Positions 29,447-44,613 of a stretch of 44,613 nucleotides of DNA are shown here, in pieces (the stretch's first letter is position 1; each line of letters begins with the position of its first letter). The stretch lies in the sequence record NC_027383.1; one strand, given 5' to 3'. The DNA comes from Escherichia phage YD-2008.s. The position numbers and the translations under genes are program-made. The notes beneath the pieces are model-generated. The model made no database searches. It worked only from the letters and a program-made list of their open reading frames with translations, and had not been told where the DNA came from.

Positions 29447-30832
29447 TTAGTAGAAGTCTACGGTTGGAACAACGGCGATCGGACGAATCACAGGGAACAA
29501 GTGCGCAATAGGGTAGCCTGCCGCGTCATTCATGTGGTCCACACCGGCAGTTTTATCCGGTTCGCCTTTCTTCAGGTCGTACACCTGCTGTTCCAGACAT
29601 TTCGCTAGTGTAGGGCATTTATCCAGGTTGACAAAATACTGGCGCACGCCCTTCGAGTTGCACATCATCGTATTCATCGCGATCAATCGGTCTTTCACAG
29701 GCGGGTTAACGCTGTCATACTCCACCTCGAAGCCCGCGTCTTCCAGTTGTGCGATATCGGACGACGACGCGTTGACCGTCTTGCGGGATTTGCCGCTGCT
29801 ATCCGGGTAAACGACGACCCTACCGGCGGCACAATGTTCCGGGTAGCGCTCCTCGATCGCCTCAATCATAGCCGGGGTGTCAAACAGGTCCACAAATTCA
29901 TCCACTGCGTGGATCTCGTCGCGGAACTCCTTGTTCTCGGTGATGCGCTGCCGTCTGACATACACAACCGCCGCCATTTTCGTGACGTTAAAGTCCATAC
30001 CGATAATCAGCGTGTCGTCCGGCTGCACTTCTTCGGTGCTGGCGTTCTCCTCGCGGTTGAACATCTTGTACACCGCGCCCGACGTAAGGTTAACAAACAG
30101 GCCGTTCAGGTACGCATCAATCAGGTTAGCCGGGTACTGACTGCGCAGCGTGTCGATAAAGTCTGCCGGTAAATGGTGGTTGTCCGTGGTCTTCGCCCGG
30201 ATCAGGCGCTTCTGGCTACCCTTCTCCACCTCGAATATTTGATACATCGCCCGGTAGCCTTCCGGCGTGGACACGATGACAAACTGGCGGACGAAGCCCG
30301 CACGCAGACGACCGAGCAATTTGTGGTATGCCGCCATTGCGACGTCTTGTTTCGTGGTGTCGAACTCGTCGGCAACAATCCACGCGGCGTTGACCCCGAT
30401 CAGGCGGGTATAGTTCTCCATTGACTCACAGATAACGCGAGTCCATTTGCCTTTCACCAGCACGTTGTAGATCTTGTCCTGCTTATTGAACTTCCACCGT
30501 AAGCCAGCCTCGTCGAATGCCTTCTCCAGTTCCGGGTACATGATTTTGACCAGGAGTGGAATAGTCGGTTCGGTCACGATGCCGTCATAACCAGGGTTAA
30601 GTGTCAGAAGCTGGATGACCTTACGTGCGGCAACCCATGACTTGCCACCGCCGAAGCCGGAACACAGGCCGAGGATTTTAGTCTTCGTGTCGCGCAGTAG
30701 TTCAACCTGGTGAGGAAGGCAATCTGGCTGGTAAAGACGCACAGCCTGCGCAACGCGTGTGGGGCGTGGTGGTCGGTTGCGCTTTGCGATCGCGCGTTCC
30801 AGTGCGCGGTGTTCTGCCGCATAGTTACGCAT
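29447..30832 (-). CDS. terminase large subunit
   Basis: 461 aa; Walker A-like LCSGFGGGKS near N-terminus, acidic nuclease-type residues in C-terminal half. Confidence 0.8.
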   Translation of the reverse strand: MRNYAAEHRALERAIAKRNRPPRPTRVAQAVRLYQPDCLPHQVELLRDTKTKILGLCSGFGGGKSWVAARKVIQLLTLNPGYDGIVTEPTIPLLVKIMYPELEKAFDEAGLRWKFNKQDKIYNVLVKGKWTRVICESMENYTRLIGVNAAWIVADEFDTTKQDVAMAAYHKLLGRLRAGFVRQFVIVSTPEGYRAMYQIFEVEKGSQKRLIRAKTTDNHHLPADFIDTLRSQYPANLIDAYLNGLFVNLTSGAVYKMFNREENASTEEVQPDDTLIIGMDFNVTKMAAVVYVRRQRITENKEFRDEIHAVDEFVDLFDTPAMIEAIEERYPEHCAAGRVVVYPDSSGKSRKTVNASSSDIAQLEDAGFEVEYDSVNPPVKDRLIAMNTMMCNSKGVRQYFVNLDKCPTLAKCLEQQVYDLKKGEPDKTAGVDHMNDAAGYPIAHLFPVIRPIAVVPTVDFY

Positions 30833-31383
30833 TAATCACCCTGACCTTTGCCGGTAGGTTCCACAACGACGTCGCCGTTATCATCTTCGTCGTCGTCCAG
30901 CGGTACATCGTCGCGGACGCCGTGGTTTGCTTTAAGCAGGAACGTAGCGAAGCCCGCCGCGATGGTTACGCCACCAGCTTCCATCAGGAAAGTTTTCTGC
31001 AACTCCATAGCATCCGCCATCGCCTCGGCGAACTCCTCATGTGCGCGCGCCCAGCGATACAGGCAAGCTACGCCCACACCGATTTCCGCGGCAAATCGAC
31101 CAAAGGTTGGCATTTTGTTGCGGGGGATTACTTGCGCAGCGCCTTTATCGGAGTAGTTGACCTGCCAGGCGTCGGCGTCGGCAAAATAGCGGCGAAGCTG
31201 GTCGCAGTAAACGGATCGGTAGTCCGTAGGGCGTCCACATTTGCCGCCTTTACGGCGCTTTCCGTACTCGATTTCAGGTCCGAGATTGGTATGCTCGGTT
31301 TGCTCGCCTGGTTTACGGCGCGGGGTAACTGCTACTCGTCCGTCCAGTTTGGCGCGTCGGCCCTTAACTTTGATTTCTGCCAT
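30832..31383 (-). CDS. terminase small subunit (putative)
   Basis: Track ORF trimmed to ATG 31383; HTH-like segment PTFGRFAAEIGVGVACLYRWARA; acidic C-terminus; TAATG overlap with large subunit. Confidence 0.55.
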   Translation of the reverse strand: MAEIKVKGRRAKLDGRVAVTPRRKPGEQTEHTNLGPEIEYGKRRKGGKCGRPTDYRSVYCDQLRRYFADADAWQVNYSDKGAAQVIPRNKMPTFGRFAAEIGVGVACLYRWARAHEEFAEAMADAMELQKTFLMEAGGVTIAAGFATFLLKANHGVRDDVPLDDDEDDNGDVVVEPTGKGQGD

Positions 31384-31513
31384 GATATATGCCCTTTTGT
31401 TCATATGCGCCGACCATCGGCAACATAGGAGACGGCCCTGCCATCTAACGGGGATTATAACAGGCACAAAAAAGCCCACCAAATCGGCAGGCTGGGCTGG
31501 TTACGGGTCGCCG

Positions 31514-32656
31514 TTACTTCAACATTTCCGGGCTAATGGTTAAGCGCGCTACTTCGCCGTAGTTGGCGCTGTAGGTAATGACGTTGGCACTGCGACCGCT
31601 CATCCAGCCGCCGCGGCTGGCGTAGGCATCTTTCGCTGCGAGCGTCCGGTGCTGTTCAACAATCATGTTGCGAGACTCGACAATCTTCTGGTGGTGCAAA
31701 TGGCCTACGTGCGCGTAGCTATATTCGCTCGACCCGAACGCCTGTCTGAATTTAGCGATCATAACCTGCTCGATAACATCGAATCGCGCTTTGTGCCCGT
31801 GGTGGAAAAATAGCGTGGTCTTACCGTGCTGCACCATTTTGTAGACGTCCGGGGACGTGTCCACATCGACGCGCGGCTCGTTCTCATACAGGGTATTGAA
31901 CATCTCAGCAAGCCAAATCATGCCCGACTCGTCATGATTACCCTGGACGATTAGCAGTTTTACTTTGTGGTGTTTTTGCAGCGCCAGGTCAACCACGTTG
32001 CGCACCATGCGAATCATATAGCGGACCAACTTCTGGTATCGTGTGTCGGCGTCCAGTACGTGACCGCTTGCTGGTGTGACGGCGTCGAGGCTATCAAAGT
32101 GGGCCGTATCACCGAGGATATTGATAACGGCAGTGCCTGCGTCCGGTGCGCGGGCGAAGGCTTCGACAAACCAGCGGTAGAACAGGTCTTCGGCGATCGC
32201 CATATCCCAGTCTTCGCCAGTCTCCTCGCCCCATGCCAACATGCCCAGGTGGAAGTCTGACACCGTGTACAGGTTGAGCAAGTCGAGCGCCTGGATCGGT
32301 ACTGGCGGTGCGCTTACCGGTGCTGCCGGTGTGATTTCGCTGTTCATACCCTCGACAACAGCGTGCATGGCTTCGAGTTGGCGCTCCTTGTCCTGCTCAG
32401 TGATGACCCACGACATGACCTCTTCGCCATTGCCGCGCACCAGGGCCGATACGCGCTTAACGCCGAAGCCATCGGCAACGCGCTGGCGGATTACGGCGTC
32501 GTTGCCGTGCCCAATGCCTTTTTTCGATAGGCGGGCTTTCCGCATATAGACATTGCGTAGGGCAATCCCGTATTTCTTCGCAATCTCTTTAACCGTAGTC
32601 CCTGCCTGAATTTCTGCGATCAATTGCTCATCGGTAATTTTAGTTTGCGGGTGCAT
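31514..32656 (-). CDS. HTH domain fused to calcineurin-like metallophosphoesterase
   Basis: 380 aa; N-terminal HTH (TVKEIAKKYGIALRNVYMRKARL); phosphoesterase motifs GDTAH, GNHDE, GHLHH. Confidence 0.6.
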   Translation of the reverse strand: MHPQTKITDEQLIAEIQAGTTVKEIAKKYGIALRNVYMRKARLSKKGIGHGNDAVIRQRVADGFGVKRVSALVRGNGEEVMSWVITEQDKERQLEAMHAVVEGMNSEITPAAPVSAPPVPIQALDLLNLYTVSDFHLGMLAWGEETGEDWDMAIAEDLFYRWFVEAFARAPDAGTAVINILGDTAHFDSLDAVTPASGHVLDADTRYQKLVRYMIRMVRNVVDLALQKHHKVKLLIVQGNHDESGMIWLAEMFNTLYENEPRVDVDTSPDVYKMVQHGKTTLFFHHGHKARFDVIEQVMIAKFRQAFGSSEYSYAHVGHLHHQKIVESRNMIVEQHRTLAAKDAYASRGGWMSGRSANVITYSANYGEVARLTISPEMLK

Positions 32657-32724
32657 ATTTAATTAATTCCTGATTAGTGTACCGCGGACAATATATCATG
32701 GGACTTATTGAGGCGGGCAATAAA

Positions 32725-32747
32725 AAGCCCGGAATTAACCGGGCTTG
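32725..32747 (-). terminator. intrinsic terminator after the lysis cassette
   Basis: Minus strand AGCCCGG ttaatt CCGGGCT followed by TTTTTATT. Confidence 0.5.
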
Positions 32748-32752
32748 ATTGT

Positions 32753-32914
32753 TTACTCTTCTGGCTCTGCAGTCGGTGGTGGGCTTGGCAGCTTCGCATC
32801 GAAGACCCCAGCGTGGTTGATAGTGTCCGCGATGATAGCGCGAGCGCCCGGATCTTCGGTTTTAGCCAGTGCGGCAAGCGCGTCCGCATTATGATCAAGA
32901 ATGCTTTTTAACAT
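32753..32914 (-). CDS. possible small ORF (53 aa) downstream of the endolysin
   Basis: GAGGT RBS before ATG 32914; below track cutoff; the track ORF 32674..32898 in another frame looks spurious. Confidence 0.3.
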   Translation of the reverse strand: MLKSILDHNADALAALAKTEDPGARAIIADTINHAGVFDAKLPSPPPTAEPEE

Positions 32915-33941: not shown

Positions 33942-33993
33942 AAAAAAGTCCCAGTAAGTTTCAGCTCACTGGGACTATATCACGCTTGCATAA

Positions 33994-41850: not shown

Positions 41851-42633
41851 ATGGCTAAAGTCAACCTGAAAAATGTGCGCGTATGTTTCCTTAATATTTG
41901 GGAACGTGATACCCCTAAACAGGCTGGACAAAAACCGGCATACCGCGCCGTGATTCTTCTGGATAAAGAAGATCCGCAGGTGGATAAAGTGGAAGCGGCA
42001 GCGCGCGCAGCGCTCACCGTCAAGCTGAAATCCGAGAAGAATGCCGATAAGTGGATGGACCGCCACTACGCCCAGGATTCTAAGGAATGCGCAGTCCGCG
42101 ACGGTGACGAGCGTGACGAAGTAACCGAAGAATTTGAAGGCATGTTGTACATCAACGCCAAATCGTTCAAACAGCCGAACATTCAAACGTCACTCGGCGA
42201 GAAGCAGACGGAACAAGGTCTGACTGTAGAAGGCGACGAGATCGAAGGCCAGGAGATCTACTCCGGTTGCTATTGCAATGTGTCCCTGGATATTTGGGCG
42301 TGGAACAATACCAACGGCAAGGGACTCGGTGCTGGCCTTTTGGGTCTGCGCTTCCGTGATGACGGCGAAGCCTTCGGCGGTGGCGGTTCTTCTTGCTCCG
42401 ACGAAGACCTGGGCGACGATGACGAAGATGAACGCCCGCGCAAGTCCAAAAAGTCAAAACGTCGTGATGACGATGACGAAGACGACAAGCCGCGCAAGTC
42501 CAAAAAGTCCAAGCGCCGCGATGACGATGATGATGACGAAGACGAGAAACCTCGTAAACGTCGTAAGCCACGCGATGACGAAGATGAGGACGACGACGAA
42601 GACGAAGCGCCACGTAAACGTCGCCGCCGTTAA
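41851..42633 (+). CDS. putative single-stranded DNA-binding protein with repeated acidic/basic C-terminal tail
   Basis: Start at ATG 41851 with GAGGAA RBS (track start 41830 rejected); N-terminus MAKVNLKNVRVCFLNIWE... resembles phage SSB-like proteins paired with Cas4-like exonucleases; C-terminal tail has four repeats of (D/E)n-PRK(S/R)KK. Confidence 0.5.
   Translation: MAKVNLKNVRVCFLNIWERDTPKQAGQKPAYRAVILLDKEDPQVDKVEAAARAALTVKLKSEKNADKWMDRHYAQDSKECAVRDGDERDEVTEEFEGMLYINAKSFKQPNIQTSLGEKQTEQGLTVEGDEIEGQEIYSGCYCNVSLDIWAWNNTNGKGLGAGLLGLRFRDDGEAFGGGGSSCSDEDLGDDDEDERPRKSKKSKRRDDDDEDDKPRKSKKSKRRDDDDDDEDEKPRKRRKPRDDEDEDDDEDEAPRKRRRR
42412..42630. repeat. ~54-bp tandem coding repeats (4 copies) in the SSB-like gene 3' end
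   Basis: GATGACGA(T/A)GA...CCGCGCAAGTCCAAAAAGTC...CG(T/C)CG(T/C) repeated. Confidence 0.55.
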
Positions 42634-42652
42634 GGGCAAAGCCCACTATTCA

Positions 42653-42676
42653 AGCCCGCTTAATGCGGGCTTTTTA
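42653..42676 (+). terminator. intrinsic terminator
   Basis: AGCCCGC ttaat GCGGGCT followed by TTTTT. Confidence 0.6.
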
Positions 42677-42691
42677 ATAGGACAATGAAAA

Positions 42692-42862
42692 ATGCGCATT
42701 AAAGCCAGCGAAGTAAAAGTCGGAATGCAGGTATGGTCTAAACTGCTGGGCGAGTATTTCACCGTTGCCGAGATTCGCAACAACGGCGAGGAGATAACCC
42801 TTTCCGACGGTATCTTCTCCATGATCGGCAGCGCCGACGCCGTAGTGAGGATTAAGCAATGA
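42692..42862 (+). CDS. possible small protein (56 aa) upstream of the polymerase
   Basis: ATG 42692; stop TGA overlaps the polymerase ATG; below track cutoff. Confidence 0.3.
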   Translation: MRIKASEVKVGMQVWSKLLGEYFTVAEIRNNGEEITLSDGIFSMIGSADAVVRIKQ

Positions 42863-44613
42863 AAGACTTCGAACGCCTGTTTCTCGATACCGAGACATTT
42901 AGCGGGGTAGACCTGAAGAAAGTTGGCGCATACGCCTACGCAGAGCACCCGACAACCGAGATTATGATTTGCACCTACGCCATCGACGAGGGCCGCGTGC
43001 AGACATGGGATTGCACCGAGTCCCCAACAATGCCGCGTGAACTGCGCAAGGCGCTCCGCAGGGTATCCCGCAAGAAAGCAAAAATAGTGATGGCTAACGG
43101 CCTCCTGTTTGACCGCCTGGTCATTCGCGAGAAGTGGGGCATTGACCTGCCAGTGTGCCAGATCGAAGACACCATGATTATGGCCTTTCGACACGCGCTG
43201 CCGGGTGGCCTCGATATGCAGTGCCAGGTGTTGGGCGTTGACGCAGAGCACGCGAAGGATAAGGCGGGCAAGGCGCTGATCAAACGATTCTGTAAGCCAA
43301 CCCCTAAGACCTACAAAATCCGCCGCTACACGCGCGAGACGCACCCCGAGGAGTGGGCTAAATTCCTGCGCTATGCCGCGTTGGATATCATCGCTATGAG
43401 GGAAGTCTATTGGCGCATACCGGACTGGGGTAACACGCCGAAGGAAGACGAAATCCTGCTTATCGACCAGTTGATCAATGACCGCGGCTTCTATGTGGAC
43501 GTTGACCTGGCGCGCGCTGCGATCAAAGCGGTACAGGCGCATAAAGAAGAATTGAAGGAAGAAGCCTGGGAGCGCTTCGGCGGTAAGCTGACAGGCAATG
43601 ACTTCCTGCCAGCGCTGCGGGACCTCGCGCCTGCGTTCACAATCCACAACGCGCAGAAATCCACGCTTAACGACCTGCTGGAAGATCCAGACTTCCCCGA
43701 AGAGGGCAAAGTGCTTATCGAGATGCGCCTCGGTGCGTCATCCACGGCATCGACTAAGTACAATCCGCTCGTTAATGGCCTATCCGCCGATGGTCGCCGC
43801 CGTGGGTGTCTTCAGTATGGTGGGGCAAAGCGCACGCTACGCTGGGCCGGTAAAGGCTTCCAGCCGCAAAACCTGGCGCGTGGCGAGTATAGCGACGACC
43901 ACGAAGGGAAGATTAAACGCCGTGAAGGCGAGAGCGACGTCGCGTTTTGGGTGCGGTCGCACATGCTCACCAACGGCATCAACTCCCTGTTACGTGGGAC
44001 AGCGCACTGGGCGTATGACATATCGAAGCTAACGGCCTCGACCGTTCGCGGGTGCATTATTCCAGCGAAGGGTAAGAAGTTTGTCGTAGCGGACTATTCT
44101 AACGTGGAAGGGCGTGGCCTCGCCTGGATCGCTGGTGAGAAAACCGCGCTAATGGTGTTTAGGGCCGGTCGCGACATTTATTGTGAGACTGCCGGTAAGA
44201 TGTTCGGCCTTGACCCGGAATACATTAAAGCCAACCGCAAAGACCTACGCCAGATTGGTAAGGCGTGTGAGTTGGGACTTGGCTATGGCGGCGGCGTGGC
44301 TGCGTTCTTGCAGTTCGCTAAAAACCTGGGCCTCGACCTTTACGCGATGGCGGACGTAATGAAGGGCACATTCCCCGATCACATTTGGGCAGCGGCTAAA
44401 CGGGGTTATGAGTACGCCCGCATTAACGAAGCGAAGCGACCGCCGAAGCCTGGCAAGAAGGACGAGCGCCCGACTTACATACTGCCGAAAAACGTATGGC
44501 TTACGTGTGATGCGATTAAACGCATGTGGCGAGAGGCGCACCCGAAGACGGTAGCCTTTTGGGCCGAGCTTGAGGACGCGGTGTTGTGTGCAATCCGCAA
44601 TCCTGGCAAAGCG
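42859..44613 (+). CDS. DNA polymerase, family A (Pol I/T7-like), N-terminal 585 aa; runs off the window end
   Basis: 3'-5' exonuclease motif LFLDTETFS, polymerase motif A VVADYSNVEGR, motif B RQIGKACELGLGYGGG; no stop before base 44613. Confidence 0.85.
   Translation, partial: MKDFERLFLDTETFSGVDLKKVGAYAYAEHPTTEIMICTYAIDEGRVQTWDCTESPTMPRELRKALRRVSRKKAKIVMANGLLFDRLVIREKWGIDLPVCQIEDTMIMAFRHALPGGLDMQCQVLGVDAEHAKDKAGKALIKRFCKPTPKTYKIRRYTRETHPEEWAKFLRYAALDIIAMREVYWRIPDWGNTPKEDEILLIDQLINDRGFYVDVDLARAAIKAVQAHKEELKEEAWERFGGKLTGNDFLPALRDLAPAFTIHNAQKSTLNDLLEDPDFPEEGKVLIEMRLGASSTASTKYNPLVNGLSADGRRRGCLQYGGAKRTLRWAGKGFQPQNLARGEYSDDHEGKIKRREGESDVAFWVRSHMLTNGINSLLRGTAHWAYDISKLTASTVRGCIIPAKGKKFVVADYSNVEGRGLAWIAGEKTALMVFRAGRDIYCETAGKMFGLDPEYIKANRKDLRQIGKACELGLGYGGGVAAFLQFAKNLGLDLYAMADVMKGTFPDHIWAAAKRGYEYARINEAKRPPKPGKKDERPTYILPKNVWLTCDAIKRMWREAHPKTVAFWAELEDAVLCAIRNPGKA

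Follow-up and report, generated by a model that had tools for sequence, protein, structure and literature searches.

Stand-alone metallophosphoesterases (MPEs) encoded by phages have been tied to the destruction of host DNA in two unrelated systems. Gp48 of mycobacteriophage A10ZJ24 acts in vitro as a phosphodiesterase and DNase; it is toxic and breaks down the genome of the host, and the phage requires it to grow on M. tuberculosis (PMC12287305). The T5 protein A1, a predicted metallophosphatase, is both necessary and sufficient for the breakdown of host DNA and has been likened to double-strand-break repair nucleases and to polymerase proofreading subunits (bioRxiv 10.64898/2026.04.02.716235). 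In this study, we analyzed a phage MPE of a different build, in which a helix-turn-helix (HTH) precedes the catalytic domain. It is encoded by Escherichia phage YD-2008.s (NC_027383.1), of which the whole 44,613-nucleotide stretch analyzed is referred to here as the window. We predict with moderate confidence that the protein is a stand-alone, HTH-tethered, two-metal (Mn2+-type) DNA phosphodiesterase.

The open reading frame at 31514..32656 on the minus strand was confirmed; it starts with ATG and encodes 380 amino acids. Its coordinates are exactly those of YD-2008.s ORF43, described as a "putative phosphoesterase" in the original genome paper (PMC5893235), and its family is catalogued in PHROGs, so the gene is already known as a finding. 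The source genome is a Dhillonvirus (HK578-like), and the 10 kb around the MPE gene are 91-95% identical to many Dhillonvirus records. Along the minus strand, two holin genes are followed by endolysin (PF00959, E 9e-21), a 53-aa ORF, the MPE gene, the small terminase gene TerS (phrog_3064, E 3.8e-73), the large terminase gene TerL (Terminase_6N/6C), and portal. TerS and TerL are thus the next genes 3' of the MPE gene, and the preliminary description was right, for this window, to place it directly upstream of terminase. The MPE protein as a terminase subunit was considered and rejected, as no terminase family appears among its Pfam and PHROG matches and both subunits are encoded by separate downstream ORFs.

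The protein is built of three parts. An N-terminal three-helix HTH (aa 9-45; 32522..32632, minus strand) is marked by HTH profile matches and by helices at residues 9-17, 22-29, and 33-45 of an AF2 model that was run on a 61-sequence alignment (pLDDT 91.0, pTM 0.78). Alignment and model place a beta-hairpin and helix module at aa 64-106 (32339..32467, minus strand), in which W83 is nearly invariant. The MPE catalytic domain, delimited by alignment, model, and fold comparison, begins at residue 126 and runs to the C terminus (aa 126-380; 31517..32281, minus strand). The linker is modeled with low confidence (blocks 41-60, pLDDT 73 and 57), and residues 1-60 are basic (pI 10.3). On translation, the minus strand yields motif I DFH (aa 134-136; 32257..32249), motif II GDTAHFD (aa 182-188; 32113..32093), motif III GNHD (aa 239-242; 31942..31931), motif IV HHGH (aa 285-288; 31804..31793), and motif V GHLHH (aa 318-322; 31705..31691). 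This is the complete five-motif set of the MPE superfamily (DxH, GDxxD/H, GNH[D/E], H, GHxH), and the model has the beta-alpha-beta-alpha-beta sandwich that goes with it. The claim of an HTH joined to a complete MPE motif set therefore holds, and the sequence goes beyond it, with DFH and HHGH in addition to the motifs named there.

Architecture and active site can both be read directly from the comparisons. We aligned the protein with 60 representatives of 50%-identity clusters, which are 32-49% identical to it. D134, H136, G182, D183, N240, H241, H286, G318, and H321 are invariant in all 61 sequences, and H186, D188, D242, H285, H288, and H319 are at least 90% conserved. The invariance of the catalytic set across these sequences indicates selection as an active hydrolase, and the conserved binuclear site implies an active phosphodiesterase. 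Pfam was less decisive when given the protein singly: Metallophos_2 (PF12850) scored 22.8 against a cut-off of 27 and Metallophos (PF00149) 19.5 against 21.5, both below, and the HTH models gave E values of 0.014-0.18, with GerE at E 0.014. Among the 61 homologues, 13 match Metallophos individually (P0128 scores 25.1), and the HTH models reach E 1.5e-9 for Sigma70_r4_2 and E 2.4e-8 for GerE. The family profile, searched against the PDB, found GerE/LuxR-type HTH structures (E 0.017). Because the single-protein scores lie under the curated cut-offs, our domain calls rest on family-level evidence; the shortfall reflects the divergence of this MPE family and does not place it outside the superfamily. 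A domain search, which the preliminary description had put forward as a check, thus bears out its reading through family-level Metallophos and HTH matches and through PHROG 704, and fails to do so for the lone protein in Pfam.

PHROG 704 is the family to which the MPE protein belongs (E 3.5e-160, residues 5-380 against profile positions 2-390 of 390). It includes proteins of T1, HK578, Kagunavirus, and Jerseyvirus, among others, and nothing sets our protein apart from it. The HK578 protein is 98.7% identical to ours and the T1 protein about 45%. Its PHROG label, "DNA repair exonuclease," is a computational annotation, and members elsewhere are annotated as calcineurin-like phosphoesterase or HTH domain protein; we found no experimentally characterized member in the literature searched. 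NCBIfam and PADLOC gave no usable match to the protein.

The family is large. With tblastn, the protein was found in 2043 of 50,697 phage records, 1680 of them covering at least 80% of its length, and the phages infect hosts that include Escherichia, Klebsiella, Salmonella, Vibrio, Campylobacter, Rhodobacter, Flavobacterium, and Ruegeria. HMMER, run exhaustively over 1.84 billion cluster representatives, returned 4603 clusters, counted at 50% identity, at E <= 1e-3, and 1123 at E <= 1e-30. When the three segments of the protein were searched as separate profiles against the 150 best representatives, the HTH was present in 131 and the hairpin-helix module in 137. Divergent members with nonalignable N termini still bear an HTH, and one has two. 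The HTH-MPE layout is the norm for a large phage family, and the description of this protein as an uncommon fusion has to be withdrawn in the face of these numbers.

We then asked the fold where, within the superfamily, the catalytic domain stands. The highest-ranking structure was the DP1 3'-5' proofreading exonuclease of PolD (15.6, 212 residues aligned), followed by T. maritima Mre11 (15.4) and S. aureus SbcD (14.9), with further Mre11/SbcD entries at 12.3-13.4. MJ0936, the maximum among generic MPEs, scored 13.5, LpxH 13.4, the cNMP phosphodiesterase Rv0805 12.0, and PP1/PP5 8.5-9.2. The best Foldseek matches were again DP1 and Mre11 (E about 1e-7). Neighbors in the BFVD viral fold library were family members and phage MPEs named "DNA polymerase II small subunit" or "calcineurin-like phosphoesterase." The fold thus appears to lean to the nucleic acid phosphodiesterase branch and away from protein phosphatases, with a moderate margin over generic MPEs, and the ranking suggests Mre11- or DP1-like nuclease chemistry. 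Together with the basic N-terminal 60 residues, the modeled proximity to DP1, Mre11, and SbcD lends support to the earlier suggestion of a DNA-targeted nuclease. Sequence searches of the PDB were less telling: the single protein retrieved nothing meaningful, and the family profile retrieved only HTH proteins and nonsignificant T. maritima Mre11/SbcD matches (E 0.66-0.88, motifs I-II).

The same ranking bears on the idea, raised in the preliminary description, of a Ser/Thr/Tyr protein phosphatase that modulates host signaling in the manner of λ NinI. The λ protein phosphatase and the PPP enzymes belong, like the MPE protein, to the calcineurin-like superfamily, and NinI is likewise phage encoded. 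In a lambdoid prophage of Dyella halodurans, the MPE gene lies beside a Q-like antiterminator gene, and in λ the nin region sits close to the position of the Q antiterminator. Against these points stands the weak similarity of the fold to PP1 and PP5, and we regard a protein phosphatase as highly improbable.

Resemblance to Mre11/SbcD and DP1 does not extend to membership in either family. Identity to these proteins is 13-16%. Mre11 and SbcD carry a C-terminal capping domain, whereas in the MPE protein the catalytic domain runs to residue 380 and the extra modules are N-terminal. They also work with a Rad50/SbcC ATPase; the annotation of Bas84, a near-identical phage, has no such gene, nor does one lie beside the MPE gene in the contexts examined. 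DP1 has an OB fold and a DP2 partner; the MPE protein has instead an N-terminal HTH, beta-hairpin, and helix, and the phage polymerase is of the family A Pol I type, with no DP2. Since these defining accessories are missing, we rejected membership in both families and file the protein in neither.

Gp48, Bxb1 gp47, and L5 gp54 of the cluster A mycobacteriophages (PHROG 221) are likewise stand-alone phage MPEs with five motifs. They are about 255 aa long with motif I at residue 10, compared with 380 aa for the PHROG 704 protein, so that they have neither the HTH nor the hairpin module. Kinship with Bxb1 gp47 of the Gp48 family was rejected (hhalign probability 6%; no cross-match between PHROGs 221 and 704). 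The T5 A1 family (PHROG 1745, as an eight-sequence alignment) gave a weak match (hhalign probability 18%, E 1.3e-3, 118 columns) in which motifs III-V and the C-terminal "...ITY" strand line up with PHROG 704. Comparison with A1 as a single sequence gave no clear link either. There was no reciprocal PHROG match between families 704 and 1745, and A1 was absent among the best 50 BFVD fold matches. A1 differs further in its length of 556 aa, its N-terminal half, and its place as a pre-early gene in the first-step-transfer DNA. Since kinship with A1 or Gp48 is not demonstrable, our claim is that the MPE protein may work like them, not that it belongs with them. Papers on the Metis and PUA-Cal-HAD defenses, which concern host calcineurin-like proteins and the T-even denA, proved unrelated to the MPE gene.

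In the mechanism that we infer, from DNA substrate and cutting polarity to biological role, the basic N-terminal HTH would hold the enzyme on DNA by a flexible linker. It would thereby stand in for what Mre11/SbcD have in their capping domain and Rad50/SbcC partner, or what DP1 has in its OB fold and in DP2. Cutting of the DNA would fall to the C-terminal MPE domain, most likely as a 3'-5' exonuclease and/or an endonuclease. The nearly universal basic HTH on its flexible tether implies a DNA (or other nucleic acid) substrate, though HTH domains may also act in the control of transcription or in contacts with other proteins. The most plausible role would be degradation of host (or competing) DNA, as carried out by Gp48 and A1; a second would be the trimming of DNA ends or intermediates together with the phage polynucleotide kinase (PNK), ligase, and recombination nucleases.

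Gene neighborhoods were surveyed in other phages and in bacterial chromosomes, the latter by a profile search of genome contigs with an eight-sequence alignment. In T1, the MPE gene comes between the Dam region and an HNH gene, with holin and endolysin beyond. MPE, holin, endolysin, and spanin genes go together in 508 of 522 Drexlerviridae, where a PNK or dNMP kinase gene often adjoins the MPE gene (PMC13164509). A 522-aa T1 ORF near the lysis genes, considered as a candidate TerL, proved to be a helicase. In the Guernseyvirinae RP180 (Kagunavirus; L008, 3495-5661) and T102 (Jerseyvirus; L009, 3097-5630), a short island on the opposite strand interrupts the tail cluster and contains the MPE gene; in RP180, this gene overlaps the PNK gene by 4 nt, with a small ATPase gene after it. 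In the Pantoea podovirus Nufs112, the order is exonuclease, endonuclease VII, HTH-MPE, phosphatase, DUF5664, and ATP-dependent ligase. A DNA methylase gene follows the MPE gene in Ruegeria phage V18, a DNA ligase gene is near it in a Campylobacter myovirus, and in Vibrio phage K103 it sits amid lysis genes, followed by an HNH gene. One metagenomic phage has it between the scaffold and major head genes, and other metagenomic contigs have it after portal, overlapping a DEAD-box helicase gene (L022), or beside T4-like Dda and RNaseH genes.

Copies in bacterial chromosomes have prophage-like surroundings. The Dyella halodurans prophage (L030, 4647-11589), which is of the lambdoid type, has in order a replication initiator, DnaB, further ORFs, and a Q-like antiterminator; the MPE gene is the first ORF after the antiterminator gene and is followed by endolysin, further ORFs, HNH, TerS, and TerL. 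Phage-like surroundings are seen at the Rhizobium locus as well, where an endolysin gene lies 2.3 kb downstream. Across the contexts examined, the commonest neighbors are lysis cassettes and DNA end-processing genes, and the MPE gene behaves as a mobile single-gene cassette at module boundaries. Because the context is so variable, guilt by association is weak. DNA-handling neighbors (exonuclease, endonuclease VII, ligase, PNK, helicase, and methylase) plausibly count toward the nuclease reading, and those that encode PNK, phosphatase, and ligase leave room for the other role, the trimming of damaged DNA ends.

The PNK, phosphatase, and ligase neighbors, to which the MPE gene is recurrently linked, also fit another kind of substrate. 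The enzyme might be a small-molecule or RNA-end phosphodiesterase, either countering defenses that signal through cyclic (oligo)nucleotides or, together with PNK and ligase, healing 3'-phosphate or 2',3'-cyclic-phosphate ends. For MPEs of the T5 A1 type, a role of this kind was predicted in a comparative-genomics review (PMC7824862), and many counterdefense genes resemble this one in being mobile single-gene cassettes. A1 has, however, since been tied to host DNA degradation, the nearly universal HTH favors a polymeric nucleic acid substrate, nuclease MPEs rank first by fold, and PADLOC and NCBIfam offered no usable match in support. We consider a small-molecule or RNA-end substrate unlikely and retain DNA as the predicted target.

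The same survey decides what can be made of the terminase genes next to the MPE gene. A packaging or terminase-accessory nuclease, whose HTH recognizes pac and whose MPE domain helps to cut or process concatemers, is suggested by the place of the gene in the window, with TerS and TerL right after it. It also draws on the Dyella prophage, in which the MPE gene lies upstream of a TerL from the same PHROGs as that of the window (38319 and 10250), and on the proximity to late genes in several lineages. Yet the adjacency is confined to Dhillonvirus-like genomes and is lost in the T1-like phages with their lysis layout, in the Guernseyvirinae, in the Pantoea podovirus, and in the Ruegeria and Campylobacter phages. 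TerL carries an RNaseH-like nuclease domain of its own. In addition, a hairpin and a conserved extended -10 element, TGTTATAAT, stand between the MPE gene and TerS, and Bas84 has an extra ORF there. The packaging role read from adjacency in the preliminary description thus finds little to sustain it; we hold it to be very unlikely, and the terminase adjacency is a local accident, without meaning for the function of the gene.

The promoter and terminator calls around the gene are consensus matches whose overall number is not above chance, and it is their placement that we rely on. Upstream of the MPE gene, after the 53-aa ORF, lies a terminator-like hairpin with a U-run (32725..32746, minus strand; -15.0 kcal/mol, z -4.1). 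It is followed by an extended -10-like element, TGATATATT (32690..32698, minus strand), 34 nt 5' of the MPE ATG, which is the putative MPE promoter. Bas84 has TGGTATATT where the window has TGATATATT, and the -10-like element and leader are conserved. Another terminator-like hairpin, with a six-U tail, lies 21 nt past the MPE stop codon (31473..31493, minus strand; -12.3 kcal/mol, z -1.6). The extended -10 TGTTATAAT (31454..31462, minus strand) is found upstream of the TerS ATG at 31404, as a putative promoter of the packaging genes; it is the sole exact TGnTATAAT in the 44.6-kb window and is identical in Bas84. In that phage, the additional ORF between the MPE gene and TerS is 70 aa long, and the block of hairpin and TGTTATAAT is identical. 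We infer that TGTTATAAT belongs to the neighboring packaging unit and probably marks its boundary with the MPE gene. The placement of these signals suggests that the MPE gene is transcribed alone, uncoupled from the terminase genes; it would form a separate unit, served by an upstream sigma-70 extended -10 element and bracketed by hairpins.

Some further features of this region can be recorded. In the window, the looser pattern TGnTA[T/G]AnT occurs at three sites only, 33974..33982, 32690..32698, and 31454..31462, all on the minus strand. They lie directly 5' of the holin gene, the MPE gene, and TerS, respectively, each beside a strong hairpin, and may mark three successive transcription units, although their total is no higher than chance would give. 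The hairpin right upstream of holin has a U-run (33947..33976, minus strand; -19.8 kcal/mol, z -6.1), and because it overlaps the -10-like element, it could be either a terminator of the upstream genes or a 5'-UTR structure. Bas84 (L007) has small extra ORFs on both sides of its MPE gene, at 42597-42704 and 43861-44073; the corresponding intervals of the window, 32657-32752 and 31483-31513, lack them, and the flanking promoter- and terminator-like blocks are conserved. The mechanically called TerS ORF (30832..31482, minus strand) starts with TTG at 31482, and its PHROG match begins at residue 37. The hairpin and TGTTATAAT fall inside this TTG-start extension, and the TerS start is likely the ATG at 31404, as in the published annotation.

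Mass spectrometry of the closely related phage vB_EcoS-B2 opens the question of whether the enzyme is carried in the virion and ejected, to act at the start of the next infection. Purified B2 particles yielded 13 unique peptides of the orthologue, ORF44, covering 36.6% of it, more than was obtained for several tail proteins; DNA polymerase I and another nonstructural protein were found in the same preparation (PMC5945888). The presence of these two proteins suggests DNA-bound contaminants. The gene between scaffold and major head genes in the metagenomic phage would agree with a virion protein, but the MPE gene is usually outside structural modules, and the B2 study is a single report with no second one found in the literature searched. 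Searches on virion proteomics, the genetics of host DNA degradation in T1, escape mutants, and Drexlerviridae metallophosphoesterases gave nothing specific to the family beyond the B2 mass spectrometry and KanT1 synteny. A virion-carried enzyme is therefore a doubtful prospect, and we continue to favor a stand-alone DNA phosphodiesterase. Virion mass spectrometry of B2 is also reported to have covered 94.5% of ORF46, the homologue of the 53-aa ORF. In the window, this ORF (32753..32914, minus strand), which lies between the endolysin and MPE genes, encodes an acidic protein (pI 4.65) that we considered as a candidate partner and inhibitor of the MPE protein.

Should the predicted activity be directed at host DNA, PHROG 704 could be the host-DNA-degrading or counterdefense nuclease of T1-like, HK578-like, and Jersey-like phages, and part of the protein might travel with the virion, as the B2 data hint. 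We put forward, as a tentative proposal only, that PHROG 704 is a third independently recruited lineage of stand-alone phage MPEs that destroy host or competitor DNA, in this case steered by an HTH. The family is persistent in T1-like phages, as part of the exonuclease-lysis module of the 508 Drexlerviridae mentioned above, and many phages of E. coli, Klebsiella, and Salmonella that are candidates for therapy also carry it. If it degrades host DNA or processes DNA ends, it bears on how small virulent siphoviruses supply themselves with nucleotides or silence host defenses, on which of the defenses that sense DNA breakdown get triggered, and on the risk of generalized transduction.

In Jk06, phiJLA23, Salmonella phage 36, and Shigella phage 2019SD1, the HTH-MPE gene is broken into two ORFs, one N-terminal and one C-terminal (PHROGs 20703 and 20762), and in T1 and Vibrio phage K103, HNH endonuclease genes directly adjoin an intact MPE gene. 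The split genes and the HNH neighbors indicate that the MPE gene may be a target of homing elements.
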